NCBI GenBank assembly: GCA_900316355.1
Contig: ONCQ01000003.1
Coordinates: forward strand, 6,113-70,112
Source: an uncultured Prevotellaceae bacterium
GTDB taxonomy: Bacteria > Bacteroidota > Bacteroidia > Bacteroidales > Bacteroidaceae
Direction of reading: 5' to 3'
Length of the DNA stretch: 64,000 bases
Shown piece by piece: positions 1-25,440 of the stretch. The first letter of the stretch is position 1. Each line of letters starts with the position of its first letter. The notes beneath the pieces are model-generated. The model was not told the origin of the DNA, did not search any database, and saw nothing but the letters and a program-made list of their open reading frames with translations. The position numbers and the translations under genes are program-made.

Positions 1-769
1 CAACGGCGAGGAGTTCATGCAGAAGTACGACAAGCGCCTCTCGCTGGCACCCCGCGACATCGTGGCCCGCGCCATCGACAAGGAGATGAAGATCCACGGC
101 ATCGACCACGTCTGCCTCGACGTCACCCATAAAGACCCCGAGGAGACCAAGCACCACTTCCCTAACATCTACGCCAAGTGCCTCAGCATCGGCATCGATA
201 TTACGAAGCAATACATCCCTGTGGTGCCCTGTGCCCACTACATGTGCGGCGGCATCAAGGTGGACTTGAACGGCGAGAGCACCATCCACCGCCTCTATGC
301 CGTCGGCGAGTGCTCCTGCACGGGTCTGCACGGCGGCAACCGCCTCGCCTCGAACTCCCTCATCGAAGCCGTCGTCTATGCCGACAAGGCCGCAGAACAC
401 AGCATCGCGCACATCGATGACTACCAGTTCAACACGCAGGTGCCCGAGTGGAACGACGAGGGCACGCTGACCAACGAGGAGAAAGTGCTCATCGCCCAGG
501 ACATGAAGGAGGTGGGACAGATCATGTCCAACTATGTGGGCATTGTGCGCAGCGACCTGCGCCTGCATCGCGCCTGGACGCGTCTGGACATCATCTATGA
601 GGAGACGGAGGAACTGTTCAAGCGCGTGAAAGCCTCCAAGGACATCTGCGAGCTCCGCAACATGGTCAATGTCGGCTATCTCATTACACGTCAGGCCATC
701 GAGCGCAAGGAAAGCCGTGGTCTCCACTACACCGTCGATTACCCCAAGCACGCCTACGACCAGAAGTAA
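1..769 (+). CDS. nadB: L-aspartate oxidase, C-terminal part; the gene starts upstream of the window
   Basis: The ORF runs in frame from position 2. The conserved stretch RLYAVGECSCTGLHGGNRLASNSLIEAVVYA matches NadB and the fumarate-reductase flavoprotein family. Confidence 0.8.
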   Translation, partial: NGEEFMQKYDKRLSLAPRDIVARAIDKEMKIHGIDHVCLDVTHKDPEETKHHFPNIYAKCLSIGIDITKQYIPVVPCAHYMCGGIKVDLNGESTIHRLYAVGECSCTGLHGGNRLASNSLIEAVVYADKAAEHSIAHIDDYQFNTQVPEWNDEGTLTNEEKVLIAQDMKEVGQIMSNYVGIVRSDLRLHRAWTRLDIIYEETEELFKRVKASKDICELRNMVNVGYLITRQAIERKESRGLHYTVDYPKHAYDQK

Positions 770-788
770 CCCCCTCCCCAATTATACA

Positions 789-819
789 TTTCTTAACACA
801 TTTCATGCGCACACCGCAC
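789..819 (+). repeat. Copy 1 of a conserved ~30-bp motif, TTTCTTAACA(c/a)(a/t)TTTCATGCGCACACCGC
   Basis: Seen directly in the sequence. It sits 18 nt downstream of the minus-strand Fic stop codon, between convergent genes. Confidence 0.7.
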
Positions 820-836
820 GGCCATTGACGATAGAT

Positions 837-1646
837 TTAGAAGAGGAACAGACCGAGGTGGGTGTTGTTGCGTTTCTGCGCGAGTTCACTCTCCATCCGC
901 TCTATGGCGACACGGAAGAAGAAGGAGATGAGGTATTCATCGGTGCCTTCGGTGCGCTTTTGGCGGAGAGCGTTGATGTATGCTTCGCGGTCTTTGATGT
1001 CTATGATAAGAATAGGATGTCCCTTATGCAAGAGTATCCAATTGGAGAGCAGACGTCCTGTGCGACCATTGCCGTCGCGGAAGGGATGAAGGTACTCAAA
1101 GAATCCGTGGAAGCGGGCTGCAACAATCATCGGATGCACATCGCGCCCGAGGGCATCTGCCGTGGATGCCATCAATGCGGGCACCCGGGCCACCAGCGTC
1201 TCATGATTGCCGAAAACCGTGTCGCCCGCCGCCATATCTTCCGTTGTATATGCCCCTGGTAGGGCACCTGGGGCGCGATAAGCCAATGTGTTTTCCGTTA
1301 CCAAACGGTTCGTCTCACACAGCAAGGCCTCGTCGAAAGGCGCATCCAAATGCGTGGTCACATAGCGGAAGGCACGGAAATGGTCGGCCATCTCCGTACA
1401 TTCCAGCAGGGAATGTCCCACGGGAACCATCGCCAAACCCTGTTCTTTCAGGATACGCGTGTCGTCAATAGTGAACGAATTGCCCTCGATGGCACATGAG
1501 TGGGTGGAGAATAGCACCTCGTGCCAGTCCATGTAGTCGGCTGGTGCCATCCTTTTGACGATACGTTCTTCATACTCGCATCGTACCTGCTCATAATGCT
1601 TTATTTCCTGTTCAAACATTGCCTTTCGAAGCTCATTGAATGACAA
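837..1646 (-). CDS. Fic/DOC family protein, a putative AMPylase with an N-terminal inhibitory helix
   Basis: Canonical Fic motif HPFRDGNGRTGR. An upstream SxxxEG inhibitory motif (SCAIEG) is also present. Confidence 0.85.
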   Translation of the reverse strand: MSFNELRKAMFEQEIKHYEQVRCEYEERIVKRMAPADYMDWHEVLFSTHSCAIEGNSFTIDDTRILKEQGLAMVPVGHSLLECTEMADHFRAFRYVTTHLDAPFDEALLCETNRLVTENTLAYRAPGALPGAYTTEDMAAGDTVFGNHETLVARVPALMASTADALGRDVHPMIVAARFHGFFEYLHPFRDGNGRTGRLLSNWILLHKGHPILIIDIKDREAYINALRQKRTEGTDEYLISFFFRVAIERMESELAQKRNNTHLGLFLF

Positions 1647-1998
1647 AAGTACGGTTTATTTCTGGACCGACAAAGGAAATTCGGTAATTTTTCGCATCCT
1701 GCCGCAAAAAGCACCTCCGAGAGGCGGTGGAGAGGCGTTGAGGATTTCAGCTCCGGCCGCTCAGGGATGATTGATATGTACCAAAAAAGTAGGAATGTTT
1801 CTTGAATCAGCCAAAAGAATCAAAGGAATTTAGTTGTTAGGCTACAAAAATAAGTTTCACATTTGGCCATATCTGCATCTGTTTTTATCGTGTAATTCCC
1901 GTCACGGAAAGTCCGTCATGGAACTTACACGATGCAAAGATACCGTGTTTCGTGAAAGGCAAGAACAGAAAAGTGAAAAACCACCTCAAATAACAACA

Positions 1999-2027
1999 TT
2001 TCTTAACAATTTTCATGCGCACACCGC
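1999..2027 (+). repeat. Copy 2 of the 30-bp motif
   Basis: Near-identical to copy 1. It lies 35 nt past the stop of the minus-strand anti-sigma gene. Confidence 0.7.
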
Positions 2028-2061
2028 TGGTACATCGCGCAAACTAATGGATGATAATGAC

Positions 2062-2466
2062 TTAATTGTAGATCATTTGCTTTTCCCTCATCAACATGAT
2101 GTCCTGAACGTTGGCGATGATGCTGGCGAGACCGAGACTCATCAACAGGGCGAGGGCTGCTGTAGTGATGAAGCGAGAATTTGCTAGTAGCCACAGCAGG
2201 ATATCGTTGTGCACCTCAAAGGTGAAGAGGGGAACATCGGCAGGCATCGAAAGCACAAAAGCGATGGTGATAGCACCGCTGATGATACCCACGACAAATG
2301 CTGCAACCGTAGCCATCTTATAGCGGCGGATGGTGGCTTCCTGATGCTGCTTGATATATTCCACAACATCCAGACGCTTGGTGAGGCTGGCCATGAAGTC
2401 GGCACTGTCTTCGAAATGTGGCGCCTGTGCGAGGAAGAGTTCCTCAAGGGCTTTATCTTTTGTCAT
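2062..2466 (-). CDS. Putative anti-sigma factor; membrane protein co-transcribed with the ECF sigma gene
   Basis: ATGA start/stop overlap with the upstream ECF sigma gene. A single central hydrophobic helix is predicted. There is no homology call beyond gene context. Confidence 0.5.
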   Translation of the reverse strand: MTKDKALEELFLAQAPHFEDSADFMASLTKRLDVVEYIKQHQEATIRRYKMATVAAFVVGIISGAITIAFVLSMPADVPLFTFEVHNDILLWLLANSRFITTAALALLMSLGLASIIANVQDIMLMREKQMIYN

Positions 2467-2939
2467 AATCGTAGTTTTTCTTTTAGTTTGTCGCGTCCCC
2501 GTGAGAGCTGTTTCTTGACAGCATCCTCCGAGGTTTCCGTGATGGAGGCAATCTCTTTGATATTATATCCGCTAAGGTAGAATAGTGTGATAGCGGAGCG
2601 TTCCTTAGGAGGAAGGGTGCGAAGGGCGAGATAGAGATCCTGATGCTCGAAAGGCGCGTCGGCAGCAGCGTTGCTGACAAGCGTTCGTGCCTCATCAATG
2701 CTTTCCGTAGTGCGCATACTCGCCTTATGGTTGAGGAACGTGTTGTGGGCAATCTTGAAGAGCCACGAGCGGAAGCGCCCCATGTCCTGATAGCCCGCCG
2801 ACGAGAGATAGGCCTTCACCAGCGTGTCCTGCGCCAGGTCATCTGCATCACTCTTGTTGCCGCAGCAGAGGGCGAGCAGGAAGCCTCTCAAAGCCTCCTG
2901 CTCACGCTCCACTTGCGTTATGAATACTACGCGTGTCAC
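2463..2939 (-). CDS. RNA polymerase ECF-type sigma-70 factor
   Basis: Sigma-70 region 2 and region 4 motifs are readable (DDLAQDTLVKAY...; ITLFYLSGYNIKEIASITETSEDAVKKQLSRGR). Confidence 0.8.
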   Translation of the reverse strand: MTRVVFITQVEREQEALRGFLLALCCGNKSDADDLAQDTLVKAYLSSAGYQDMGRFRSWLFKIAHNTFLNHKASMRTTESIDEARTLVSNAAADAPFEHQDLYLALRTLPPKERSAITLFYLSGYNIKEIASITETSEDAVKKQLSRGRDKLKEKLRL

Positions 2940-2942
2940 GGC

Positions 2943-3395
2943 TTATGCCTGTGTGGCCATTTTCTTTTCTTCTGCCTCTATCTCTTTGGCCAAAACCTTC
3001 TTGCCGACATAATAGTTGATTAGGAAAGCGATGCCGACAGGCAAAAGAAGTGCTCCGAAGAGGGTAAACGGATTGTTATTATTACCCCTGCCTGCAATAA
3101 GATAGCAACCAAAGATTGTTAATGCGAGGCCCAACAGGGTGAGGATGCCACCCCACAGCAGTTTCGTGAGCAGTTTTTCTTTCAGCAGTGTTTTTTGCGG
3201 AGCCATCTTCTTGAGTAAGTCCTCAACGTCCGTCTCGGCGTTTTTCTCGATGGCGGCCAGCACAATCTGTGTTCGTTGATTCGTCTCGTTGATTTTCTTG
3301 CGGTTATTCAGCCATACGATGATGATGGGGAGTGCAACGACACCAATGAGAAAAAAGATCTTAACGATCATTTCCGGTAGGAGATTCAAATTCAT
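2943..3395 (-). CDS. Small membrane protein upstream of the ECF sigma gene (DUF-type)
   Basis: Several predicted TM helices. Its stop lies 3 nt before the sigma start codon, in the same operon. Confidence 0.5.
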   Translation of the reverse strand: MNLNLLPEMIVKIFFLIGVVALPIIIVWLNNRKKINETNQRTQIVLAAIEKNAETDVEDLLKKMAPQKTLLKEKLLTKLLWGGILTLLGLALTIFGCYLIAGRGNNNNPFTLFGALLLPVGIAFLINYYVGKKVLAKEIEAEEKKMATQA

Positions 3396-3505
3396 AATCT
3401 TGTTTTTATTATAGGGTTAAACTTTTGTTTCTTTCTTGAACCGATTCACTTATATAACAGTTCAAGAACGCAAAAGGTGACATACCATAACAAAAAAGTT
3501 ACATC

Positions 3506-3832
3506 CTACTTGTAGTCTGGCTCCCACAGGTGGCGGTTCATGTCCACATGGCCGTTGGGTTTGAAGTGGACGCCCTCCTTCTCCAATAACGTGCGGTGCT
3601 CCAGCCAACCGGGCGCTGTGCGACCTGCGGCGTTGACCACGCGATGACAGGGCAGGCGCTCAGCGCCAGGCGTATAGCGCAATGTCCGCCCCACCAGCCG
3701 TGCGTGACTCGGCCATCCCGCCAATGTGGCGATGAGTCCATAGGTCGTCACACGTCCGCGAGGTATCTGCCCGACGATGTTGAGCACATCATCATGGAAA
3801 GCCCGCGCCTGCTCTGGCGACATCTTATGCAT
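3506..3832 (-). CDS. MGMT-family protein; DNA-binding/active-site domain of methylated-DNA-protein-cysteine methyltransferase
   Basis: Active-site PCHRVV motif. The first Met of the ORF precedes the conserved region by 46 codons, so I start the CDS at the internal Met (MHKMSPEQ). Confidence 0.7.
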   Translation of the reverse strand: MHKMSPEQARAFHDDVLNIVGQIPRGRVTTYGLIATLAGWPSHARLVGRTLRYTPGAERLPCHRVVNAAGRTAPGWLEHRTLLEKEGVHFKPNGHVDMNRHLWEPDYK

Positions 3833-3857
3833 TGAGGATTTGGTTATATGCTTGGCG

Positions 3858-4799
3858 TTACAGCTCCACGGCGGGCCAACCGTAGTCCTGATAGTAGCGG
3901 ACGGGGAGGTTGTGCTGTTGCACGTACTCCTGAAGCTGCTCCTTGCGGACGGCTTCGCGGACATTCTCATTGGAGTGCATGTTCTGGAACACGTCGAAGT
4001 GCTCGCCGAAGATGCGCTGGGCGGTGGGCAGGAAGCGTGAGCCGTCCTCCACGCGCTCGAAGCCTGTCACGGCGAAGCGCCCATCCTTCTCGGACAACGT
4101 CATGAGGCCGGGATGGCTGCCGCCCGATACGGTCTTCAGCGTATCGCCAGCCTGATCATACCAGAACACCCAGAAGTCGCCCCACACACGCATCGGCTGG
4201 CTGTCGTCGTCCTCAGCTGCTATCATCAGCATCGGGATGCATAGCTCGCCCTGCAGGTATTGTGCCCCAATCTCGCAAACCATGTAAGCGCTGATGGCAG
4301 CACGAACGGCCTGCTCGCGGCGGTTGATGGCGATATGACGGAGGCAGTCTGCCTTGTGCTCGTCGAAATCCGACATCAGCCACTGCCCGTCCACACATTC
4401 CATATACAGGCGATGCTCTTCAGCTTCGCTCTCCGAATCCAAGGAACCGTCTTCCCATTTCTGTCGCACCATCACGGTAGCCACCGCGTGCGTCTCGTCC
4501 GTCTGCTGTACGCCCACGACCTCATAGTCCGCAATCGTACCGCCGTTGCCGGTCACGAAATAGTAGAGCCATTCGTGGTCCATAGCCTCGTGCTCCGGCA
4601 GGTGGAACAGCGTGTCGAGGACGGCATAGAAGTCCGCCGTCATGTAGTCTTTCGACTGCTCCAGCAGCTCATGATCCGGGATGTACTGGCATAACTCCGC
4701 TGCGCGCTGGCGCAGACGTTCCCCCTGACTGACACACCCCGCCAGCAACAATCCCAGGCAAAGAAGTGCCGTAGAAAAAAGAATCTTGTACTTACTCAT
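3858..4799 (-). CDS. Hypothetical lipoprotein
   Basis: Signal peptide with an LLAGC lipobox. A TAATTTTG -7 box lies about 45 nt upstream of the start. Confidence 0.6.
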   Translation of the reverse strand: MSKYKILFSTALLCLGLLLAGCVSQGERLRQRAAELCQYIPDHELLEQSKDYMTADFYAVLDTLFHLPEHEAMDHEWLYYFVTGNGGTIADYEVVGVQQTDETHAVATVMVRQKWEDGSLDSESEAEEHRLYMECVDGQWLMSDFDEHKADCLRHIAINRREQAVRAAISAYMVCEIGAQYLQGELCIPMLMIAAEDDDSQPMRVWGDFWVFWYDQAGDTLKTVSGGSHPGLMTLSEKDGRFAVTGFERVEDGSRFLPTAQRIFGEHFDVFQNMHSNENVREAVRKEQLQEYVQQHNLPVRYYQDYGWPAVEL

Positions 4800-4935
4800 A
4801 TTGAATTCTGTTTATCTAAATTCTGTTGATCTATTTGCCTGCAAAATTACACATTATTCCATTACGCCCGCACGAAACCTTCATTTTTTCATTGCCCACC
4901 TCTCTTTTTGAGTCACAACTCTCAGAATTTAAATA

Positions 4936-4965
4936 TTTCTTAACAATTTTCATGCGCACACCGCA
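4936..4965 (+). repeat. Copy 3 of the 30-bp motif
   Basis: Identical core TTTCTTAACAATTTTCATGCGCACACCGC. It lies just beyond the hairpin that follows the minus-strand VirE gene. Confidence 0.7.
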
Positions 4966-4978
4966 TTTTTTGTGTACA

Positions 4979-5015
4979 GGAAAGCCCGAGCGATGCTGAT
5001 GTGCTCGGGCTTTCC
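4979..5015 (-). terminator. Perfect 13-bp stem hairpin downstream of the VirE-like gene
   Basis: GGAAAGCCCGAGC-11 nt-GCTCGGGCTTTCC. There is no clear U-tract on the minus strand and a T-tract on the plus side, so the function is uncertain. Confidence 0.35.
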
Positions 5016-5043
5016 CTTGTGATGATTTCGCTACTTGTGGTGA

Positions 5044-6270
5044 TTACGCTACTTGTGATGATAATGCTGTGATGCGGGGAACGGCATAGTAGAAGCGGCC
5101 GTCGGCATCGCGAGCCATCTGGTAGCCGCGTGCGCTCAGGGCGATGCCCAGCTGCACCTTGGTGGAGTGCGTGGGCTCGATGAAGGGGTACTCCTTCGTG
5201 ACTATCTTCACCAGCGTGCTCATGGGCAGCGGTTCGCAGGGCTCGTCGGCAGCAGGCTGACGGAAGCAGACATCCACCATCTGCTCCAGGTCGTGGGTGG
5301 ACTCGTAGGGCGCATTGGCCAGCTGCAGGCTACGCGTCTCAGCCTCCGTGAGCCAGTAGCGCTCGCTGTTGCGCAGCTCGCTGAGCACCTGCGCATAGAG
5401 CTGTTCGTAGTTGACGGGCGTGAGGTTGTCGATGACGCTGCCGGCGGCAATCTCGATGCACAGGAAACGACGCGAGCCGGTGGGGTCGTGCAGGGGATGC
5501 AGGTTGTTGGTGGTTGCCACGAACGACGCGTAGCGACGGCGGTCGGCCTGCACACGTCCGTAGATGGGGCGCCCATTCACGCGAACCTTCGACAGCAACT
5601 GCTTCAGCTCTGCCTGCTGGCAGCGCCGCACCTGATCCAGCTCGTCGATGTTCACCAACAGATTGTTTGTCAGCGCCATCTCCTTGTCAAACTTGTTGCC
5701 GAGGTTCACATGGTCGAGGAAATACTCGCGCAGGTGCTCGGGCAGCAACAGCCGGCAGAAGGTGCTCTTGCCGCAGCCCTGTGCGCCGATGAGCGTGGGC
5801 ACCACCTCGTTGCCGTGCAGCGCATCCATCTGCATCCAATGCGCCACCATCGAGCGCAGCCAGATGGAGAGCCAGTAGCGCTGCTCGCTGCGGATGCCGG
5901 GCAGGCGGTCGAAGAGTGCGCCTGCGTGGTTCTTGCCATCCCACGCCGGCAGTGCCATCAGCCACTCGCGGACAGGATCGTAGTCAGGCGTCTCGCGCGA
6001 ATAGATAATGGTGGTCAGCTTCTTGCCCACGCCCTGTGCCTCCGGCATCGCCTCTTCGGTTGCGAGCGCGAGACTGTTCATGTCCTCGGCAGTCAGCGCC
6101 CGCCAGACATCTTCGCTCGCATCGCTCGCCAGACTGTCACCCTGCTCGGACGTGCAGCTGTCGCCGCCCTCATTCAGTTCACGATACTCGATTTTGCCGC
6201 TCAACAGGTTGCGGCGGAAAGCATATCCCTCCTTGAGGAACTGCTTGATGTCAGAATTTGTGATTCTCAT
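5044..6270 (-). CDS. Virulence-associated protein E (VirE) / primase C-terminal-like P-loop protein
   Basis: Walker A GAQGCGKST and overall VirE-family architecture. In Bacteroidota this family is usually tied to mobile elements. Confidence 0.75.
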   Translation of the reverse strand: MRITNSDIKQFLKEGYAFRRNLLSGKIEYRELNEGGDSCTSEQGDSLASDASEDVWRALTAEDMNSLALATEEAMPEAQGVGKKLTTIIYSRETPDYDPVREWLMALPAWDGKNHAGALFDRLPGIRSEQRYWLSIWLRSMVAHWMQMDALHGNEVVPTLIGAQGCGKSTFCRLLLPEHLREYFLDHVNLGNKFDKEMALTNNLLVNIDELDQVRRCQQAELKQLLSKVRVNGRPIYGRVQADRRRYASFVATTNNLHPLHDPTGSRRFLCIEIAAGSVIDNLTPVNYEQLYAQVLSELRNSERYWLTEAETRSLQLANAPYESTHDLEQMVDVCFRQPAADEPCEPLPMSTLVKIVTKEYPFIEPTHSTKVQLGIALSARGYQMARDADGRFYYAVPRITALSSQVA

Positions 6271-6727
6271 AATTCTTAAGATTTTTAGTTAAATAATGAA
6301 TGTGATCATTGGGGTTGAATAGCTATTCGGCTGCAAAGATATAACAAAATTTTTGCGCTGTCAAGACCCTTTCGCAGATTTCTAACTTTCAGAAACACAG
6401 CCTGTAATATCATGCTTCTCGCCTGAAGAAAAGCCTCTCCTTCCTAAGGCGTAAACTTCTTCGCCTGCTGCTCCTAACCTCTTTGCTCCTCATCGCAAAA
6501 CCCTACACTTCACGGTGTATAAATAATTTTACTCAGTGATTCCTATAACTCAACCAGTGAGCCGACCAAACCACCGAGTGATTTGTGCAACCCACTCAGT
6601 CATTTTAACAATCATTAAGGCTGCGTATTTGTTTATGTCATGGAGAAGCGATATTTTTGCAGCGTTGAAGAAAACTTATCTCCGTATGCTGCAATATTAC
6701 AAACTCGAACAGCGCGACAGCTTCGAT

Positions 6728-7384
6728 ATGAAGAAGACGCGGACAGTGTATAAACTCAAGAAGAAGGCGACGGTATCGCCTGAGGCGTTTATCCACGAAG
6801 TGGCCAAACGTCGTGGATCCAGCGAGTCGGTCATCTCGGGCGTACTGATGGACGTGGCAGATGAATTAGAGTATCTGCTGGGACAGGGCTACGGCGTCAC
6901 GCTCCCCGGCATCGGCACCTTCACGGTCGGCGTCCGCCTGAAGGAAGAGCGCAAGGAGCAGCTGGAAGAAGAGCAGGACGCTGCTGCTGAGGCTGCCGAG
7001 AGCGGAGGGAAGCCCAAGAAGGTGACGGAGCCCAATGCCCGCAACATAGAGCTCCACCACATCAACTACCGCAAGGACAAACACCTGTTCAGCAATGTGG
7101 CCTCGCGCTTGAATCGTGAGGAGAAACAGCGCATAGGAGGGCGTGAGGGCGTGCGCATCACCATCGACGATTCCTCGCAGAAGCAGCGCATTGCCGCTGC
7201 CCACGAGTTTCTGGAGACGCATTCCTTCATGCGCGTCAGCGACTATGCTGAAATCACAGGGCTGTCACGCTCCAGCGCCCAACGCGAGCTGCGCGAACTG
7301 GTGAAGTTCCAATATTCTGGCATCACCTGCCGGGGTCGGGGCAGCCATCGTGTCTTTGTGCGGTGTGCGCATGAAAAATGTTAA
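6728..7384 (+). CDS. HU-related (histone-like) DNA-binding protein, Bacteroidetes type
   Basis: N-terminus MKKTRTVYKLKKK and a GIGTFTV-type HU fold motif. The first Met of the ORF lies in an AT-rich leader, so the start was moved to the conserved Met. Confidence 0.65.
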   Translation: MKKTRTVYKLKKKATVSPEAFIHEVAKRRGSSESVISGVLMDVADELEYLLGQGYGVTLPGIGTFTVGVRLKEERKEQLEEEQDAAAEAAESGGKPKKVTEPNARNIELHHINYRKDKHLFSNVASRLNREEKQRIGGREGVRITIDDSSQKQRIAAAHEFLETHSFMRVSDYAEITGLSRSSAQRELRELVKFQYSGITCRGRGSHRVFVRCAHEKC

Positions 7385-7388
7385 TAAA
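7358..7388 (-). repeat. Copy 4 of the 30-bp motif, in inverted orientation, overlapping the HU-like stop codon
   Basis: GTGCGGTGTGCGCATGAAAAATGTTAATAAA. It encodes the last residues (VRCAHEKC*) of the HU-like gene. Confidence 0.65.
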
Positions 7389-7440
7389 TCTTTAATTTTA
7401 AAAAGTGGGGCAAAGCAGGTGGGCGTCTCGCAAGAAAATA

Positions 7441-7448
7441 GTACCTTT
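7441..7448 (+). promoter_or_regulatory. Bacteroidetes sigma-A -7 box TACCTTTG
   Basis: Matches TAnnTTTG, 26 nt upstream of the BspA-like start codon. Confidence 0.45.
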
Positions 7449-7473
7449 GCAGCGAAAAACATCATTTGAGCCT

Positions 7474-8832
7474 ATGAAAAAATCTTTTCTCACATGGTTG
7501 ATTCCTGCTATGTTGCTGGGAACTACGATATTGAGCGTCACCGCTTGTGTCAAAGAGGAGGAGAATAATCCACCCGTACAGCCGGAGCCAGGAGGCGGCG
7601 GACAGGAAGAAGATGAGGATGAGGACGAGAAAAGGGAAGTGCAGCCCTTGGATATCCGCGAGATTATTGTCACTGTGGATGAGCAGGGAAAGGCTGACGG
7701 CAACCACCGTTTCCAGAAAATCAACGAGACGAATTTCTATATCGATGACATCAAATACAGGGTCGAGGATGGCGAGCTGGTCGTGTGTGGCTGTAGCCCC
7801 TTTTTCGAAGGGGATGCCGTCATCATCTCGGCGTTGAGGTACCAGGGGAGTACGATGAAGGTGACGAAGATCACTGACGGGGCGTTCCGGGATAGTACGA
7901 TCCTGAAGACATGCATTGTCGGCACCGAGGTGACGACCATCGGAAAGCAGGCGTTCGAGAGTTGCAGCAACCTGGAGGCGGTGGCTATTCCCCGCAGTGT
8001 GAAGAGCATCGGCGGCAACGCGTTCCGCTATTGCTACGAATTGTACTCTGTTCATATCACAGACCTTTCGGCGTGGTGTAAGATTGATTTCAAGATTGAT
8101 GAAGAAATCATCTCTTACAAGTACAATTACACCACGACGAGCAATCCCCTTGCGCATGCCCACCATCTCTATCTGGATAATCAGGAGGTGACGGAGCTGA
8201 CCATTCCCAGTGATGTGACGACAATAAAACAGAATACGTTTGCCGGCTACTGGGGACTGACAGCCATTACCATTCCGGACCATGTGACGAGCATCGGCGT
8301 GCAGGCGTTTGCGCTTTGCCGCGGCCTGACCTCTGTGAATATTCCCAGCAGCGTGACGAGCATCGGGCAGTACGCCTTCTCCGGATGCGAGGGCCTGACC
8401 TCTGTGACCATCCCAAGTAACATAAGGTCCATCGACGATGCGGTGTTTGCCGGTTGCCTCCGCCTGACGTCCATCTCGATTCCGGATCGCGTGACGAGCC
8501 TCGGAAAGTTTGCGTTTTATGAATGCAGCGCCCTGACGTCTGTGACCATCCCGAACAGCGTGACGGACATCGGCGAGAAGGCTTTCCACGGTTGCCTCGG
8601 TCTGACATCGGTGACCATCGGCAGCAGCGTGACGAACATCGCCGTCAATGCCTTCTATTATTGCACTGCTCTGACGGATGTGTATTGCACTGCTGTGAAT
8701 CCGCCTTCGGCCAAGGACGCGTTCACAAATTCTCCCATTTCATCGGCCACGCTCCATGTTCCGGCTCAGTCGCTGGAGGCCTACATGGCGGCTTCTCCCT
8801 GGAGCGAATTTGGCGCCAAGGTGGCTCTTTGA
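7474..8832 (+). CDS. BspA-type leucine-rich-repeat surface protein (lipoprotein)
   Basis: Signal peptide with a TAC lipobox, an acidic linker, and tandem 23-aa LRR_5 units (IPxSVTSIGxxAFxxCxxLTSV). Confidence 0.8.
   Translation: MKKSFLTWLIPAMLLGTTILSVTACVKEEENNPPVQPEPGGGGQEEDEDEDEKREVQPLDIREIIVTVDEQGKADGNHRFQKINETNFYIDDIKYRVEDGELVVCGCSPFFEGDAVIISALRYQGSTMKVTKITDGAFRDSTILKTCIVGTEVTTIGKQAFESCSNLEAVAIPRSVKSIGGNAFRYCYELYSVHITDLSAWCKIDFKIDEEIISYKYNYTTTSNPLAHAHHLYLDNQEVTELTIPSDVTTIKQNTFAGYWGLTAITIPDHVTSIGVQAFALCRGLTSVNIPSSVTSIGQYAFSGCEGLTSVTIPSNIRSIDDAVFAGCLRLTSISIPDRVTSLGKFAFYECSALTSVTIPNSVTDIGEKAFHGCLGLTSVTIGSSVTNIAVNAFYYCTALTDVYCTAVNPPSAKDAFTNSPISSATLHVPAQSLEAYMAASPWSEFGAKVAL
8200..8650 (+). 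repeat. Tandem 69-bp coding repeats (LRR units) inside the BspA-like gene
   Basis: Repeated GCCTGACCTCTGTGA...CCCAGCAGCGTGACGAGCATCGG units are directly visible. Confidence 0.7.
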
Positions 8833-8851: not shown

Positions 8852-9412
8852 TCACCAGCTGAGTGTGCGGGTGCCGTCGGGATTGGCGGTGATGTGCACG
8901 CGGAGCGTGTCATCGGGCAGCAGGTCCTCGATGAGTTCGGGCCATTCGATGAGGCACAGGTGGCCGCTGTAGAGGTAGTCCTCGAAGCCCATGTCATAGG
9001 CCTCCTCGATGCGCTTGATGCGATAGAAATCGAAGTGATAAATAGATGAATGCTCTTTGCGTTCGTCATTGACCTTCGGTCGAGCCTGCTCACGCTCGGG
9101 AAAGTTCAAGCAAGCTTGACTCTCCTCTCGCTTAATCGCAGCCTTCGTCATTCGTAACTCATCATTCGTCATTCGTAACTTGTCATTCACAGCGTATTCG
9201 TTGACGATGGCGAAGGTGGGGGAGGTGACCGGTTCGGTGACCCCCAGTTCGCGGCAAAGGGCTGCGATGAAGGTGGTCTTGCCGGCACCCATGGTGCCGT
9301 AGAAGGCAATGATGCGGCGGTCGCCTAAATTGGCGCGGAACTCACGGGCGGCTGCATCCAGCGCGTCTTCCGTGAAGGTGATGGAGGGTTTATTTTCTGT
9401 GGGTGAGGTCAT
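8852..9412 (-). CDS. tsaE: tRNA threonylcarbamoyladenosine biosynthesis protein TsaE, carrying an in-frame ~110-bp repeat-element insertion
   Basis: P-loop GTMGAGKTTF and the HFDFYR motif. About 43 extra residues lie between VNEY and IYHFDFYR, encoded by the repeat at 9056-9190. Confidence 0.8.
   Translation of the reverse strand: MTSPTENKPSITFTEDALDAAAREFRANLGDRRIIAFYGTMGAGKTTFIAALCRELGVTEPVTSPTFAIVNEYAVNDKLRMTNDELRMTKAAIKREESQACLNFPEREQARPKVNDERKEHSSIYHFDFYRIKRIEEAYDMGFEDYLYSGHLCLIEWPELIEDLLPDDTLRVHITANPDGTRTLSW
9056..9190. repeat. Repeat element inside tsaE coding sequence: a 76-bp core plus a CATTCGTAAC-type tandem array
   Basis: The core at 9071-9146 is 76/76 identical to 31113-31188. 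It is flanked by TTCGTCATT direct repeats. Confidence 0.85.
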
Positions 9413-9508: not shown

Positions 9509-11143
9509 TCAACCTCTCTTCCTCGGCGTGAGTTCCACCAGGGGAATCAGCATTTCCTCCATGGAGATGCCGCCGTGCTGGAAGGTGTCGCGGTAGTAGG
9601 AGACGTAGTAGTTGTAGTTGTTGGGGTAGGCGAAGAAGCTGTCTCCGCGGGCGAAGATGTAGCGCGTGGATAGGTTGGGGGAGGGCAGCAGCGCGCGCTG
9701 GGGATTAGTGATCTCGAAGACTTCCTTGGGGTTGTAGTCGAGGTTCTTGCCGAGCTTGTAGCGCAGGTTGGTGTTGGTGTTCTTGTCGCCCTTGACACGC
9801 ACGGGGGACTGACAGCGGATACTGCCGTGGTCGGTGGTCAGGATGATGCGGTAGTCGGAGGTGGCGAGGGCGCGGAAGAGGTCTGCGACGGCGCTGTGGC
9901 GGAACCAGCTGAGGGTGATGCTGCGGTAGGCGGCCTCGTTGCTGGCCAGCTCGCGCACCATGCGGCTCTCTGTGCGAGCGTGGCTGAGCATGTCGATGAA
10001 GTTGAGGACGCAGACATTGACATCGTATTTCTCCATCTGCGGCAACTTCTGCACGAGGCGCTCGGCGGCAGCAGAGTCGTTGACCTTGTTGTAGGTGAAG
10101 GTGTGTTGGCGGCGGTAGCGCTTGAAGAGGGTCTGTATGAGAGGCGCCTCGTTGAGGTTCTTGCCCTCCTCGCTGTCCTCATCGACCCAAAGGTCAGGGA
10201 ACATCTCGGCGATGATGTTAGGCATGAGGCCCGAGAAGATGGCGTTGCGCGCATACTGCGTGGCAGTGGGCAGGATAGAGCAGTAGAGAGCCTCGTCGAT
10301 ATGGAAGAGGTCGGCAATCTCGTTCATGAGGATGCGCCACTGGTCGTAGCGGAAGTTGTCGATGACGATGAGGAACACCTTCTCGCCGCTGTCCAGGAGG
10401 GGGAAGACGCGGCGCTTGAAGATGTCGGGGCTCATGATGGGCGGGCGCCCGGGCATCTCGGCATCGTTGATCCAGTCGAGGTAGTTACGCTCGATGAAGC
10501 GGGAGAACTGGTGGTTGGCCTCCTGCTTCTGCATGGCCAGCATCTCCTTCATGCCGCTGTCGGTCTCGGAGAGCTGCAGCTCCCAGGCCACGAGGCGGCG
10601 ATAGACCTCCATCCAGTCCTCGATGCTGCGGGCCTCGTCGATGAGCATGCCCATCTTGCCGAAGTCCTGCTGGTAGGCGGTCTGTGTCTGTTCGGTGACG
10701 ATTTCGCGCTGATGGATGTTCTTCTTCAGCGAGAGCAGTATCTGCGTGGGGTTGACGGGTTTGATGAGGTAGTCGGCAATCTTGCTGCCTATGGCCTGAT
10801 CCATGATGTTCTCCTCCTCGCTCTTGGTGACCATCACCACGGGTGTGGTGGGCGTCACCTCCTTGATGCGCTGCAGTGTCTCGAGTCCGCTGAGGCCGGG
10901 CATGTTCTCATCGAGGAGGATGAGGTCGTAGGTCTTCTCGCGGCAGCGGTCGATGGCGTCGAAGCCATTGGTGACGGTATCGACGGCATAGCCCTTCTTT
11001 TCCAGAAAGAGGATATGAGCCTTCAGCAGCTCTATCTCATCGTCGATCCAAAGTAAAGAAGCTATGGCAGACCCGGCAGACCCACCCCCGACCCCTCCCG
11101 TGAGGGAGGGGAGAGGCTGGCGCGATGTAGTTTTATTGGACAT
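9509..11143 (-). CDS. porX: Type IX secretion response regulator PorX (CheY receiver plus PglZ/alkaline-phosphatase-like domain)
   Basis: LWIDDEIELLKAHILFLEKKGY receiver N-terminus with a PglZ-like C-terminal domain. The first ~28 codons, including the ATG, are encoded by the palindromic repeat element. Confidence 0.75.
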   Translation of the reverse strand: MSNKTTSRQPLPSLTGGVGGGSAGSAIASLLWIDDEIELLKAHILFLEKKGYAVDTVTNGFDAIDRCREKTYDLILLDENMPGLSGLETLQRIKEVTPTTPVVMVTKSEEENIMDQAIGSKIADYLIKPVNPTQILLSLKKNIHQREIVTEQTQTAYQQDFGKMGMLIDEARSIEDWMEVYRRLVAWELQLSETDSGMKEMLAMQKQEANHQFSRFIERNYLDWINDAEMPGRPPIMSPDIFKRRVFPLLDSGEKVFLIVIDNFRYDQWRILMNEIADLFHIDEALYCSILPTATQYARNAIFSGLMPNIIAEMFPDLWVDEDSEEGKNLNEAPLIQTLFKRYRRQHTFTYNKVNDSAAAERLVQKLPQMEKYDVNVCVLNFIDMLSHARTESRMVRELASNEAAYRSITLSWFRHSAVADLFRALATSDYRIILTTDHGSIRCQSPVRVKGDKNTNTNLRYKLGKNLDYNPKEVFEITNPQRALLPSPNLSTRYIFARGDSFFAYPNNYNYYVSYYRDTFQHGGISMEEMLIPLVELTPRKRG

Positions 11144-11280: not shown

Positions 11281-14225
11281 TCATCATCATCCGCTTCTTC
11301 CTCTTCTTCCACCTCTTCTTCCTCCTCACTGCTACTCTGCTGGGTGGCGTTTTCCTGGCCGACGGGCACATCATCGATGTCCTTGGGCATGTCGGTGGGC
11401 TCGTCGAGGATGAGGTCCTTGGGCACTTCGAGGGGTGAGAGTTCGGCATCGAAGAACTCGGCGTAGTCGTCGTAGCTGTAGCGCGTGCCCAGCAGCTTCA
11501 GGTTAGCCTCGCTGATGAGGATGGCGCGGATGCCCTCCAGGCGCTCGCGCATGTGGGCGTTGCCATAGAGTTGCTGGGCGTAGGCGTGGACCTCGTCATA
11601 GGTCTGGAAGCCCGTGACGCGCAGCTGGCTGATGGTGCCTGCGGGCACTATCTCGATGTCGAAGTTGCGGGCCATGAAGGAGGTGAAGTTGAAGCGTGCC
11701 ACCTCATAGAGCAGCTGGTCCTCGTCGAGTTCGCCGGTGGGGTAGGCGAGCACGAAGACATAAGGCACCAGCGGGTCAGCGATGAGGCTGTCCTTCGCTG
11801 CTGCGCCGCCCTCCTCGCTATCGACGGCTGTGCGTCGGCTCCAGATGCTGCTGGCATCCCATTTGTCGGTCGTCAGCAGGCGGCCCTCCTGGACACCTTT
11901 CACGAAGGCCTGTGCCAGCTCGGCAATCTCATCCTTGGAGTATTTCTCTATCACGACCTTCAGCTCGGCCAGGAAGGAGTCGCGGTGGCCTGTGTAGAGC
12001 TGTGTCATGGCGTGGATGAACAGGAACTTAGCGCGATGTGCGCCGTCCTCGAAGGTGGTAGTGCTCTCCTCGAAGTTGTCGTTGACAATCCAGTAGTGAC
12101 CCTCCTTATAGGCGTCGTAGGTCTGGGCATAAAGCGTGTCCTCGAGGTGGCGCCCGAACTGTGCCAGCTCCAGATAGCGGGGATTGGTGACGGTCTTGGT
12201 GTGCTCGCTATCGGGGAAGGAGTCGCGCAGGAGTGTCAAATAGCTGTCCATGGCCTCGTCATCGCCGCGCCGCATGGCCAGCAGGAAGAGGTGGTAGTAG
12301 ATGTCGTCCATGTGCTCGAAGTCGGGGAAATCCTTGACCACGCGGTTCAGGGTCTTGCCGGCGAGCGGGAAGTTGCCGATCTTGTCCATCTCCAGCACGC
12401 CGCCGTGGTAGAGGCCGTCGCACAGGAGCTGGTTGGAGGCTGCCAGCTGCTCCTCGGTGAAGGGAATCTGTTTGAGGTAGTATTCGCGGTGGTGCGGGTC
12501 GTTGGCGAGCGAGTCTTTCAGGCGTTGTTCCTCCTCGTCGTAGTCGCCCGCGCCGCCCATACCTTCGCCGAGCGCTGCCAGACTGTCCTCGGCGGCATAG
12601 TCGTAGCCCGTGTCGCTGTCGCCGCTGCTGTTGGCGCTCATGCCTTGCTTGTCGCTGATGCGCCAGTTGTCCTCGTTCGGACGCGTGCCCCATCGGCGCT
12701 GGAACGCCTGCTTGCCCTGCAGCACCGTCTGTGCATTGTAGAAATAGAAGGTGGCCGTCTGCGAGCCGCGCCGCACGGCACCCGCCTGGTTGTTGTTCGT
12801 GGCGGCGCCAGTGCCCGTGGTTGTTGTGCCCGCACCTGCTGCGCCGCCCTGTGCCTGCTCGAACTCCTTCTTCTCCTGCTCCTTCTCTTTCTTCTTGAGT
12901 TCGTCGATGACGCGGTCGATGGCTGCCAGGTACTCTTTCTCCGGCAGCTTGGCCAGCGCCTGGAGGCTGTCCTGCAGCTTCACGGCCGAGAGATGGGGCT
13001 CCACCTCGGTGAGCACCTTGCTGCGATGCTCCACCTCCTTGTAGTCCTTGTTCTCCTTGTCCATCAGCGACACCAGCTCGTTGTAGCAGGCGGTGGCGTC
13101 GATATAGTTCTCGCGCTCCCAGTAGAGTTCGCCCAGATGTTGCAGCACGACGGCCTTGGCGAAGCCGTTCTGCGTGCTCTCCTCGATGCCTTTCTCCCAG
13201 GCATAGATGGTGCTCATCGTGTCGCGGCTGGCCAGATAGATGTTGCCGATGGCGTAGTAGATACGGTCGAGATAGTTGGCATTGTTGGGGTTCTTGGACA
13301 TGCGGCGCAGCTTGCGTATCATCGCCTTGCCCTGCCCGTCGGCCATCACCTCGGTCTGCAGGATGCGCGCATTGAAGGCCAGCTCGTAGGGCGGGTTCAG
13401 GCGTGTGCATTTGCGCAGAGCCTTGTACGCCAGCTGCTTGTCGCCCGCCTGCTGATGGAGTTGTCCCAGGAGGTAGTAGAGGCGTGCACGCTGCAGCTTG
13501 CTGCGTGTGTGCTTGATGGTGGCGGTGAGGGGTTCCAGCGCTTCCTGTAGCTGTCCTGTGGCGATGTAGTAGGCGGCGCGCGATGCCGTCGTCTCACGTT
13601 CTCCGCGCTCCGAGATGCTGTCGCGCTGTATCTTGTTGAAGACATCCTCGGCATCGTAGGGCCAGTCCAGCAGCACATAGCAGCGTGCCAGCTTGGCGCG
13701 TGCCACACTGGCCACCTCAGGCTGTCCGCTGTAGAGGCGCACGATGTAGTTGTAGCTGGCCGCAGCCTCGATGAAATCGCCCGTTTGGAACTGTGCGTCC
13801 GCCATCATCAGCCATGCGCGATAGAGGTAGGGGTTGAACTCCTTGCGGTTGAAGTAGGCCTTCTGCTTATCCGTCATGCGGCTCGACGGCTTCTTGGGCT
13901 TGCGCTTGATGCTGTGTTTCTTGATGGCCTTCTGGCTCTTCTCGATGGCTGTCTCGAAGTTGCCCTTACCCATCGCTGCCGTCTTCTTGTCGGCCACGAT
14001 ATACATGGGTAGCAGCTCCGTGTAGTTGTCGGTGTGCCCTTTCTCCTGTGCCTCCACGCCTTCGAGGAAGGCCACGCGGCCGTTGTAGAGCGTGTTGAAA
14101 TGGGCGGTGGTGCTGTGGTAGAAGCGCGTCATCGCCGTGTTCTTCTTGGTGGAGCACGACAATAGCAGCCCTACAGACAGCAGGACTGAGCAGATAATAT
14201 AATATGTACGCGCGCGATGTCTCAC
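11265..14225 (-). CDS. Large TPR-repeat lipoprotein with an acidic C-terminus; possibly a T9SS/gliding-associated PorW/SprE-like protein
   Basis: Lipobox LLSCS and multiple TPR-like helical repeats. It sits immediately upstream of porX. The PorW assignment is inference from context. The stop codon is read as CTA at 11266-11268. Confidence 0.6.
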   Translation of the reverse strand: MRHRARTYYIICSVLLSVGLLLSCSTKKNTAMTRFYHSTTAHFNTLYNGRVAFLEGVEAQEKGHTDNYTELLPMYIVADKKTAAMGKGNFETAIEKSQKAIKKHSIKRKPKKPSSRMTDKQKAYFNRKEFNPYLYRAWLMMADAQFQTGDFIEAAASYNYIVRLYSGQPEVASVARAKLARCYVLLDWPYDAEDVFNKIQRDSISERGERETTASRAAYYIATGQLQEALEPLTATIKHTRSKLQRARLYYLLGQLHQQAGDKQLAYKALRKCTRLNPPYELAFNARILQTEVMADGQGKAMIRKLRRMSKNPNNANYLDRIYYAIGNIYLASRDTMSTIYAWEKGIEESTQNGFAKAVVLQHLGELYWERENYIDATACYNELVSLMDKENKDYKEVEHRSKVLTEVEPHLSAVKLQDSLQALAKLPEKEYLAAIDRVIDELKKKEKEQEKKEFEQAQGGAAGAGTTTTGTGAATNNNQAGAVRRGSQTATFYFYNAQTVLQGKQAFQRRWGTRPNEDNWRISDKQGMSANSSGDSDTGYDYAAEDSLAALGEGMGGAGDYDEEEQRLKDSLANDPHHREYYLKQIPFTEEQLAASNQLLCDGLYHGGVLEMDKIGNFPLAGKTLNRVVKDFPDFEHMDDIYYHLFLLAMRRGDDEAMDSYLTLLRDSFPDSEHTKTVTNPRYLELAQFGRHLEDTLYAQTYDAYKEGHYWIVNDNFEESTTTFEDGAHRAKFLFIHAMTQLYTGHRDSFLAELKVVIEKYSKDEIAELAQAFVKGVQEGRLLTTDKWDASSIWSRRTAVDSEEGGAAAKDSLIADPLVPYVFVLAYPTGELDEDQLLYEVARFNFTSFMARNFDIEIVPAGTISQLRVTGFQTYDEVHAYAQQLYGNAHMRERLEGIRAILISEANLKLLGTRYSYDDYAEFFDAELSPLEVPKDLILDEPTDMPKDIDDVPVGQENATQQSSSEEEEEVEEEEEADDDEDWMY

Positions 14226-25389: not shown

Positions 25390-25440
25390 ATAATGAAGAA
25401 TGAAAAATGAAAAGTGAAGAATGAAAAGTGAAAAATTAGA
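25342..25440. repeat. Palindromic core GAAATGCCCCCGAGCCCCCTAAAGGGGAGCGTAGGGAG plus a GAAAAGTGAA-type tandem array
   Basis: The core recurs at 41170, 45623 and 31230 (rc). The tandem array spans 25380-25440. Confidence 0.85.

Follow-up and report, generated by a model that had tools for sequence, protein, structure and literature searches.

The window analysed here is a stretch of 64,000 nucleotides from an uncultured Prevotellaceae bacterium, and it carries an accessory island in which the gene calls are backed by Pfam matches. Two divergent genes form what is referred to below as the core: a VapE-like P-loop NTPase gene on the minus strand (5044–6270; VapE-like_dom, DUF5906 and DUF3874) and a HU-HIG gene on the plus strand (6686–7384), whose product has a Pfam-supported HU domain and, in its C-terminal region, an HTH match that is sub-threshold only. 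The divergent promoter region between them (6271–6685) contains Bacteroidetes-type −7 boxes at 6330–6342 and 6651–6663, as well as a weak direct repeat at 6535–6600. Two accessory blocks, both on the minus strand, lie on the VapE side. Block A (2030–4926) comprises five ORFs, namely a 134-aa ORF (2062–2466; no Pfam match) that is co-directional with the ECF sigma gene and encodes a putative anti-sigma factor, the ECF sigma gene itself (2463–2939; Pfam), a DUF6249 gene (2943–3395; Pfam), a gene for an MGMT-like DNA-binding protein (3506–3835; Pfam) and a gene for a 313-aa protein whose N-terminus is lipoprotein-like and which has no Pfam match (3858–4799). Block B (820–1988) carries a Fic gene (837–1619; Pfam). 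On the HU-HIG side, a BspA-type LRR gene (7474–8832, plus strand) adjoins the core and is variable among relatives. A hairpin, also on the minus strand, follows the VapE stop codon (4978–5016; −33.8 kcal/mol, z-score −3.9); the sequence-only reading of this DNA had noted it with a 13-bp stem, whereas the stem has 14 bp. It is likely the terminator of the VapE-like gene and separate from the motif described below.

No recombinase, transposase or integrase gene was found among the 10 proteins encoded in 1–9.4 kb by Pfam search, with no Phage_integrase match. For the other 45 ORFs of the window, none is among the 25 listed of 74 matched Pfam families, which are housekeeping families, and none was found in most related loci either.

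The island is punctuated by a short repeat, TGCGGTGTGCGCATGAAAnnTGTTAAGAAAT, which occurs in four near-identical copies within 780–7397: w1 (780–819), w2 (1989–2029) and w3 (4927–4966) on the minus strand, and w4 (7358–7397) on the plus strand. The 29-mer TTTCTTAACAMWTTTCATGCGCACACCGC matches without mismatches at 789–817(+), 1999–2027(+) and 4936–4964(+) and with two mismatches at 7360–7388(−); the minus-strand reading of w1 is GTGCGGTGTGCGCATGAAATGTGTTAAGAAATGTATAATT. Pairwise, the copies are identical at 28–30 of their first 32 nt. The conserved stretch of about 31 nt, T-GCGGTGTGCGCATGAAAnnTGTTAAKAAAT, is followed by an A/T-rich tail, and the length of the repeat unit is taken as about 31–38 bases. 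In 100 dinucleotide-preserving shuffles there was no match to TTTCTTAACAMWTTTCATGCGCACACCGC (chance expectation 0). The four copies fall within 6.6 kb and none in the remaining 57 kb; the 17-nt core of the motif has only four sites in the whole 64 kb, and a profile search found no further copy in the window. The four-copy repeat proposed from the sequence is therefore real, with the earlier coordinates off by 1–3 nt at most. No published account of the motif was found in the literature searched.

As the earlier reading had claimed, each copy in the window sits after a stop codon, always oriented alike with respect to its upstream gene, at distances of 19 nt (Fic), 34 nt (the 134-aa ORF) and 79 nt (VapE, with the hairpin in between), while w4 overlaps the HU-HIG stop and encodes the last seven codons (RCAHEKC) and the stop codon. 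Copy w1 does lie between convergent genes, Fic and nadB; it faces the nadB 3' end, 10 nt from the nadB stop, and is the terminal copy of the VapE-side array. Seen from the core, w3 and w4 form an inverted pair that brackets the divergent HU-HIG and VapE-like genes (4927–7397), with w3 at the VapE-side end and w4 at the HU-HIG-side end. Copies w1 and w2 run in the same direction, away from the core, and delimit the two accessory blocks, w2 being the boundary between A and B.

The core itself recurs in other species' contexts. In L022 and L026 it has 79–88% nucleotide identity to that of the window, and the homology reaches as far as the outer limits of the inverted copies (w3 for the VapE side), giving way in L022 to a gene that its N-terminal sequence alone identifies as a typA-like GTPase gene, and in L026 to Tex and AAA ATPase genes. 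The whole layout of the window was found again in four other Prevotellaceae loci with at least three copies each, and in these the motif variant is specific to the locus and common to all of its copies: five copies of GTGCGCTGTGCGGACTTTTTTTGTTAAGAAAT in L062, three of ...CATGAATTCGRAAAAAAT in L074, three in a hairpin form in L076, and three of AGTGATATGTGCTAACTATTTTGAAAAAAA in L090. The L076-related loci L063 and L068 have one extra copy each beyond the core, and in L060 the core is flanked by two copies that both have GACTATTCG mid-motif. The SIG144 genome has its own variant at L090 and the canonical variant at L005. Orientation relative to the core is constant, all copies pointing outward in five loci; of the extra copies, those outside the core-flanking pairs, 10 of 10 are directed away from the core (2^-10, about 0.001). 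In L063 and L076 this polarity is kept though the local genes run the opposite way. A block with DUF6249, sigma and 134-aa genes occurs both in the window and in L062, and in each the local variant follows 34–35 nt after the stop. The content of blocks elsewhere includes RhuM, toxin-antitoxin, restriction-modification and ECF-sigma genes. Where a direct repeat flanks a block in L062 and L090, it reaches 40–70 nt past the motif, which is what Campbell-type insertion should leave behind.

In the wider family, the motif is intergenic in 59 of 59 instances, but a fixed orientation to the nearest gene end does not hold: copies that face a convergent gene end are about as many as those that come after a co-directional one. 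The constant orientation relative to the HU-HIG/VapE core is a feature that the sequence-only reading did not contain.

Strain variation at motif-delimited junctions, which had been set beforehand as a check, is seen among close relatives. L043 is 96–98% identical to the window and lacks exactly 2028–4930, the 2.9 kb between the direct copies w2 and w3 and with it the whole of block A; its junction is a single hybrid motif copy, which identifies w2 and w3 as the crossover partners of one exact motif-to-motif deletion. The VapE hairpin and motif are common to the window, L043, L021 and L059, and divergence begins directly after TGTTAAGAAAT, with unrelated DNA beyond the shared hairpin and motif in L021 and L059. 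Altogether, the VapE-side copy has four different neighbours among close relatives. A motif-pivot inversion is seen between L076 and L063, in which VapE is inverted relative to MFS/fucose genes, with inverted motif copies at the pivots. Several metagenome contigs stop directly after VapE, at w3, as is expected at a branching junction. Not every junction is exact: L031 lacks 7406–8800, the BspA region, by a deletion that is not motif-to-motif, and the HU-side breakpoints between L063 and L064 are likewise motif-inexact. The variant loci come from metagenome assemblies, in which a misjoin at the repeat is formally possible; against this, some contig names carry k=141, which exceeds the length of the repeat, and L043 joins the two flanks of one locus. 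All contigs with an identical TsaE or VapE protein share the layout of the window, and turnover is therefore not fast.

These observations lead us to propose that the motif probably serves as the junction repeat of a modular hotspot for accessory genes, with the divergent HU-HIG/VapE-like pair at its centre. The inverted core copies have their G+C-rich end, TGCGGTGTGCG, inward and their A/T-rich end, TGTTAAGAAAT..., outward, and the extra, always outward-pointing copies stand at the borders of accessory blocks, which in the window are the Fic block and the 313-aa/MGMT-like/ECF-sigma set. Recombination between motif copies would reshuffle the locus, so that blocks are gained, lost or inverted: direct copies would give precise block loss, inverted copies would flip the core, and in the reverse reaction a circular block would be re-inserted at any copy. 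The cassette-boundary or recombination-site character suggested earlier gains support from the L043 deletion, the switches in L021 and L059 and the recurrence in four loci. We infer that recombination makes use of the motif as a site, beyond a passive patch of homology, and circular intermediates presumably exist. A 31–38-bp repeat suffices for rare RecA-dependent recombination, however, and the deletion and inversion could therefore be RecA-type by-products of passive repeats.

Several other explanations need to be weighed against the junction-repeat reading. A 3'-UTR signal had been suggested, and in its fullest form the motif would be a 3'-end element derived from an intrinsic terminator, corresponding to its descending arm and T-tract and closing each transcription unit, with the likeness among copies due to concerted evolution and the rearrangements incidental. 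All four window copies do come after a stop codon and are oriented as the gene that it ends, and blocks are mostly co-oriented with the neighbouring core gene. The homologous element of the L063/L076 lineage has the canonical form of a hairpin with a T-run, GAGCGCACCCG-N8-CGGGTGCGCTC-TTTTTTTGTTAAAA, and the motif may thus have a terminator as its ancestor; in L002, L006, L036 and L047 a hairpin has GCGGTGTGCGC as its 3' arm. For the window copies themselves, a 3'-UTR or terminator role finds no support. They fail as intrinsic (Rho-independent) terminators, having no G+C-rich hairpin directly followed by a T-run: w1, w2 and w4 have no hairpin, the folding of 111-nt segments around them does not surpass that of shuffled sequence (z-scores of +1.5, +1.8 and −0.5), and all that a consensus terminator scan gave was a 5-bp mini-stem on the opposite strand at w3, with total terminator-like sites at chance level. 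Rfam gave no match at E<=1 in 600–7600, and over the whole window tRNAs alone reach the gathering score. What is conserved is sequence and not structure, and the core-relative polarity kept despite reversed genes in L063 and L076, together with the near-equal placements among the 59 instances, also speaks against this account, which we regard as unlikely. A promoter role for the motif was rejected as well.

Similarly improbable is a 2.47-kb HU-HIG/VapE mobile unit that has the motif as its terminal inverted repeat, with close inverted pairs as MITE-like internal-deletion derivatives and solo copies as relics. Such a unit would fit a conserved core that is bounded exactly by inverted copies, with the same variant at both ends of a given core and a chromosomal context that differs between species; it would also fit the inverted pairs with 33–82-nt linkers and the same geometry at unrelated intergenic sites (L019, L020, L027, L030, L040, L041, L045 and L051) and the 95-nt hairpin-plus-motif unit in at least four contexts. 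But none of the pairs or cores shows a visible target-site duplication, no transposase was found and VapE-like and HU-HIG proteins are not known transposases, an identical VapE protein with both flanks changed was never seen, and direct, outward-pointing extra copies at block borders are left unexplained. In L003 an Rpn/PDDEXK_2 gene has motif copies on either side, but two homologues do not. The strict mirror-symmetric polarity about a core whose products are a DNA-binding protein and a helicase-like NTPase could instead reflect a polar binding site for a core- or host-encoded protein, acting as a barrier, an insulator, in silencing or in fork arrest for VapE-driven local replication, with rearrangements secondary. 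Conservation of sequence without structure and the locus-specific variants, as in the SIG144 genome, agree with this. However, the HU-HIG C-terminal region is nearly invariant across lineages whose motif middles differ strongly, so that there is no covariation; no origin-like feature is seen beyond the weak direct repeat, and binding is putative. We therefore consider this explanation very unlikely.

The junction-repeat reading invites comparison with known systems, above all with the attC arrays of integrons (chromosomal super-integrons, VCR-type). In both, accessory arrays are punctuated by one repeat in fixed orientation to a platform, the repeats are homogeneous within a locus (for the VCR-type, within a species) and differ between lineages, and losses of whole blocks are exact from repeat to repeat. 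Uniform orientation to the platform was found in five loci and precise cassette loss or gain in L043, as in an integron. The attC core consensus is GTTRRRY, and the GTTAAGA of the motif is close to it. Unlike attC, a foldable imperfect palindrome of 50–150 bp (R''-L''...L'-R'), the motif in the window has about 31–38 nt and no inverted partner; inverted pairs of general attC-like shape occur only at loci outside the window. Integron arrays extend from one attI and adjoin the tyrosine recombinase gene IntI, whereas the motif copies flank a two-gene core and point outward on either side of it, with no such gene found in 1–9.4 kb, and the blocks, unlike integron cassettes, may have several genes in either orientation. 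The E. coli dif sequence is GGTGCGCATAATGTATATTATGTTAAAT. The motif shares with it the words TGCGCAT and TGTTAA, spaced by 6 nt in the motif and by 11 nt in dif. Modules bounded by short sites, some of them inverted, also occur in the pdif (Xer) modules of Acinetobacter plasmids and at chromosomal dif. These sites, however, are 28 bp long, with two 11-bp arms, partial dyad and a 6–8-bp centre, while the motif has no 11-6-11 layout and no dyad symmetry, and its copies within an arm are direct where pdif sites alternate. As the core site of a tyrosine or serine recombinase the motif, lacking dyad symmetry, was rejected. Like REP/BIME, REPIN-RAYT and MITEs (Correia elements), the motif is a short intergenic repeat found singly or in inverted pairs, with a lineage-specific consensus and mostly near gene 3' ends, and a gene unit set between inverted copies is reminiscent of RAYT genes with their flanking REPs. 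A REP/BIME unit is an imperfect palindrome with about 100 or more copies per genome, whereas the motif has only a 4–5-bp mini-stem, TGCG-N5-CGCA, and its copy number looks low, the exact 25-mer occurring once in each of six GTDB representative genomes. No Y1 (RAYT) transposase, DDE transposase or target-site duplication was seen in the loci examined.

Within the same order, Bacteroidales, the recombinase-associated acquired interbacterial defence clusters (rAID-1) consist of a conserved XerD-family recombinase followed by an immunity-gene array, and their authors described repetitive intergenic sequences as integron-like and the structure as suggestive of active gene acquisition (bioRxiv 10.1101/471110). 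Both systems have a repeated intergenic motif. In contrast to rAID-1, the platform here is the HU-HIG/VapE pair, with no recombinase and no immunity-gene array among the Pfam matches listed for the window, and the cargo comprises Fic, ECF sigma, RhuM, toxin-antitoxin, restriction-modification and BspA genes. It is tempting, though rather doubtful, to go further and regard the HU-HIG/VapE pair as the platform of an undescribed Prevotellaceae cassette-capture system, integron-like, two-sided and with no tyrosine recombinase, in which the polar, locus-specific 31–38-bp repeats would be insertion and excision sites for circular defence or accessory blocks and exchange would be catalysed or directed by the core proteins or by an unlinked repeat-reading enzyme.

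Prevotellaceae of the rumen and gut are abundant, difficult to culture and highly strain-variable, and their exchange of accessory genes is little understood. A HU-HIG/VapE platform with polar boundary repeats would provide a simple sequence rule for recognising variable defence and accessory blocks in metagenomes, and the motif junctions would also account for recurrent contig breaks there. HU-HIG proteins have been proposed to act in conflicts with mobile DNA, and no conserved gene linkage was found for them (PMC5499826); the layout described here would point to a role for the greatly expanded, unexplained HU-HIG and VapE/VirE-like families of Bacteroidales. An enzyme-directed exchange would make this a cassette system that falls under neither the integron nor the Xer paradigm; should the exchange be no more than RecA activity on passive repeats, the locus would still be a clear example of short repeats shaping an island.

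The repeated motif is a real feature of the window. Its 29-mer occurs on the plus strand at 789-817, 1999-2027 and 4936-4964 and, inverted and with two mismatches, at 7360-7388, places that the sequence-only reading had given correctly to within 1-3 nt, and it was matched in none of 100 shuffles of the window. The 17-nt core TTTCATGCGCACACCGC is found at these four sites only within the 64 kb, and a profile search of the window returned no further copies. The motif is read here in the sense opposite to that of the earlier reading, as T-GCGGTGTGCGCATGAAAnnTGTTAAKAAAT followed by an A/T-rich tail. In this sense the copies w1 (780-819), w2 (1989-2029), w3 (4927-4966) and w4 (7358-7397) are identical to one another in 28-30 of their first 32 nt. 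Each lies just 3' of a stop codon, at 19, 34, 79 and 0 nt, respectively, and in that gene's own orientation; w1 is placed between convergent genes. Both observations had been made from the sequence and hold in the window.

The island that carries the copies is enclosed by nadB, which ends at 769, and tsaE (8852-9412). On the minus strand it encodes a Fic protein (837-1619), a DUF6249 protein with an ECF sigma factor and a co-directional 134-aa ORF (3395-2062; a putative anti-sigma factor without Pfam match), an MGMT-like DNA-binding protein (3506-3835), a 313-aa protein that matches no Pfam family and has a lipoprotein-like N-terminus (3858-4799), and a VapE-like NTPase (5044-6270). On the plus strand follow an HU-HIG protein (6686-7384) and a BspA-type LRR protein (7474-8832). 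Pfam supports the Fic, DUF6249, ECF sigma, MGMT-like, VapE-like, HU-HIG and BspA-type assignments, and with them most of the earlier gene calls. In the rest of the window, the 25 Pfam families among the matches listed are housekeeping. Between the divergent VapE-like and HU-HIG genes (6271-6685) lie two Bacteroidetes-type -7 boxes, at 6330-6342 and at 6651-6663, which are also divergent, together with a 24-nt direct repeat (6535-6558, 6577-6600; 42 nt apart) as a possible operator or iteron-like site.

In our reading, the motif is the repeat at the junctions of a cassette hotspot whose centre is the HU-HIG/VapE core, bracketed by the inverted copies w3 and w4. Recombination between direct copies would remove a block precisely, a lost block might be re-inserted, and recombination between inverted copies would flip the core. 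The descriptive part of this reading, namely the layout and the rearrangements at the copies, is well supported, and the evidence favours the boundary and recombination-site options of the sequence-only reading. The clearest case of variation at motif-delimited junctions is L043, one of the related metagenome contigs. With 96-98% identity to the window, it aligns with 940-2027 and 4931-6646 and has nothing of 2028-4930; its junction is a single hybrid copy in which the VapE hairpin is joined to the right flank of w2. The VapE hairpin plus motif is common to the window, L043, L021 and L059, with a different continuation directly after TGTTAAGAAAT. Contigs of the L005 and L018 types likewise have the left flank and motif in common and then diverge, and several contigs end directly after VapE. 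Between L076 and L063, VapE is inverted relative to the MFS/fucose genes, with inverted copies as the pivots. The DUF6249-sigma-134-aa block is common to the window and L062, and in both cases 34-35 nt separate its end from the local motif variant; in L062 and L090 the block-flanking direct repeat reaches 40-70 nt past the motif. Contigs with an identical TsaE or VapE protein showed no strain variation, all having the window layout; turnover is therefore slow. Not every junction coincides exactly with the motif (L031; L063 versus L064). In L031, which is 98% identical to the window on both sides, the BspA-type LRR gene region 7406-8800 is absent; the left junction lies 8 nt past w4 and the right one 32 nt before the BspA stop, where there is no motif.

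The core pair recurs in L022 and L026 at 79-88% nucleotide identity, and homology ends at the outer ends of the copies. The neighbours are unrelated: L022 has a typA-like GTPase gene (recognised by N-terminal sequence only), whereas L026 has Tex and an AAA ATPase. Around the L022 core, the inverted repeat (10330-10466, 12875-12999) extends at least 100 nt past both motif copies, and these flanks are identical, with TTTTCAC-type runs. Loci of distant VapE homologues have the same layout, each with a locus-specific motif variant. L060 has GTGCGGTGTGCGGACTATTCGTGTTAAAAAAT at each core end. L062 has five copies of GTGCGCTGTGCGGACTTTTTTTGTTAAGAAAT in the order GH20, M, hydrolase, M, HU-HIG <> VapE, M, RhuM, M, DUF6249-sigma-134-aa ORF, M, 222-aa gene (M being a copy). 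Three copies each are present in L074 (...CATGAATTCGRAAAAAAT; HU, M and VapE, M, HepT + MscS + cupin, M), in L076 (hairpin form ...CGGGTGCGCTCTTTTTTTGTTAAAATTTG; M, VapE, M, toxin-antitoxin and Vsr/HNH/Dcm restriction-modification genes, M) and in L090 (AGTGATATGTGCTAACTATTTTGAAAAAAA; HU, M and VapE, M, ECF sigma and CarboxypepD_reg protein, M). Since L090 and L005, which has the canonical variant, belong to the same MAG, the variant is a property of the locus and not of the genome.

The window and the related loci have 10 copies besides the core-flanking pairs (w1 and w2, three copies in L062, and a single one in each of L074, L076, L063, L068 and L090), and every one of them points away from the core, even where the local genes run the opposite way. 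The chance of this is 2^-10, about 0.001, if the copies are independent, and the true figure is weaker because L063, L068 and L076 are one lineage. Alignment of HU-HIG proteins gives an ancestral C-terminus ...GSHRVYVLRKxx, seen in five other lineages, whereas in the window (7358-7384), L022 and L060 the motif itself supplies the final 7-8 residues and the stop (RCAHEKC*, RCAHENC*, RSADYSR*), so that a junction has cut a few codons into the gene.

The exact 25-mer occurs in only six rumen Prevotellaceae/Bacteroidales MAGs, with one copy each, in a scan of one genome per species, and a looser pattern occurs in 36 rumen metagenome contigs. Profile search gave 59 distinct instances, every one intergenic in DNA with 82% ORF coverage (nominal chance 2e-44, although many instances are orthologous in related contigs and hence not independent). 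A TGCG upstream of the required pattern is invariant, though the search did not demand it. Family-wide, copies that face a convergent gene end are about as many as those that follow a co-directional one; the constant orientation to the adjoining gene end noted from the four window copies thus does not extend to the wider family. The motif stands alone, after varied hairpins (one 95-nt hairpin-plus-motif unit recurs in four or more contexts), as a hairpin's 3' arm (L002, L006, L036, L047), or in inverted pairs with the G+C-rich ends inward and linkers of 33-82 nt. Copies can erode, as is seen from the decayed TTTCTTAACAAAAAAACATCGCACACCGC at L038 149-186, in DNA that matches the sequence upstream of the 313-aa gene (window 3858-4799) at 93% identity. 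A suspected degenerate copy at about 3480-3505, between DUF6249 and the MGMT-like gene, was rejected, being part of a conserved DUF6249 upstream region common with L062.

Several other readings of the motif were discarded. It contains ATGAAA, as a small ORF or gene start might, but its variable positions are non-synonymous in both reading frames, so that it is under no coding constraint. Although w2, w3 and w4 each have a Bacteroidetes -7 box (TAnnTTTG) 55-105 nt downstream, a promoter does not suit w1 and the many family members that are directed at the 3' end of a convergent gene. The motif has no Rfam match even at E<=1, and phage and plasmid collections gave short chance matches only, with no relative of the motif. 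The window GC-skew profile was uninformative as to a replication terminus. TGCGCAT and TGTTAA are also present in E. coli dif, but they are 6 nt apart in the motif and 11 in dif, and the motif has no dyad symmetry.

The remaining alternatives concern what the motif was, or is, and what acts on it. The L063/L076 variant is a canonical terminator, which makes a terminator-derived 3' element plausible as the origin of the motif in evolution; as the role that the window copies have today it is not supported. A terminator consensus scan gave nothing above chance, folding around w1, w2 and w4 was no better than in shuffled sequence, and the only significant fold was that of a distinct hairpin with a 14-bp stem, located between w3 and the stop codon of VapE. 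If the motif were the terminal inverted repeat of a mobile HU-HIG/VapE unit that also has MITE-like derivatives, the pairs at the core ends and the short inverted pairs would be accounted for, but the outward-pointing direct copies would be left unexplained; neither a transposase nor, at the inverted pairs and cores inspected, target-site duplications were found, and we consider this reading unlikely. That the motif is a polar protein-binding or barrier site we hold to be quite improbable.

Under the junction-repeat reading, exchange would be carried out by a dedicated enzyme or by RecA acting on the 31-38-bp homology. A dedicated site is disfavoured by several points: no recombinase was found near the copies (Pfam, covering island proteins and the families listed for the rest of the window), dyad symmetry is lacking, turnover is slow, some junctions are not motif-exact, and all variant loci are metagenome assemblies. 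Nor does the HU-HIG C-terminal region co-vary with the motif, the region being nearly invariant while the motif middle varies. The one lead to a partner enzyme, an Rpn/PDDEXK_2 nuclease in L003, is not general, as the homologues P0163 and P0123 (9 contigs scanned) are not flanked by the motif. In L003 the Rpn-family PD-(D/E)XK 'transposase' gene (80-1387) lies between inverted copies, and many Rpn-family homologues (P0121-P0240) are on contigs barely exceeding gene length, as with multi-copy elements.

In the way it works, the layout resembles an integron array whose attC repeats are homogeneous within a species, and also the rAID-1 clusters of Bacteroidales (bioRxiv 10.1101/471110). However, the island proteins and the Pfam families listed for the rest of the window include neither the IntI of the former nor the XerD-family recombinase of the latter; the motif is no attC-type palindrome, and the array is two-sided and built on a different platform. 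HU-HIG genes are reported to be almost wholly without conserved operonic linkage (PMC5499826). In the literature searched, the motif sequence is absent and we found no description of an HU-HIG/VapE pairing with boundary repeats or of the same layout.

Other repeats were seen alongside. TTTTCAC heptamer runs follow the motif in w2 (1950-1985), L003, L017 (1185-1232), L022 and L043, and a similar run is present at window 25385-25436. A composite repeat of about 340 nt occupies several unrelated intergenic sites (L045 6660-7000, L051 2849-3207, L027 6118-6437) and comprises a conserved 53-nt linker besides the inverted motif pair; its tail carries three GAAGAT-N4-ATCTTC palindromes and a CGTTTACC...GGTAAACG hairpin. 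The window TsaE (8852-9412) has an in-frame insertion of about 45 aa at about 9040-9180, and its Pfam match falls into two stretches. The DNA at 9062-9166 shares 94% identity with L002 212-316, which belongs to another Bacteroidales MAG, and holds TCATTCGTAAC-like tandem units; a small in-frame repeat element is a possible reading.
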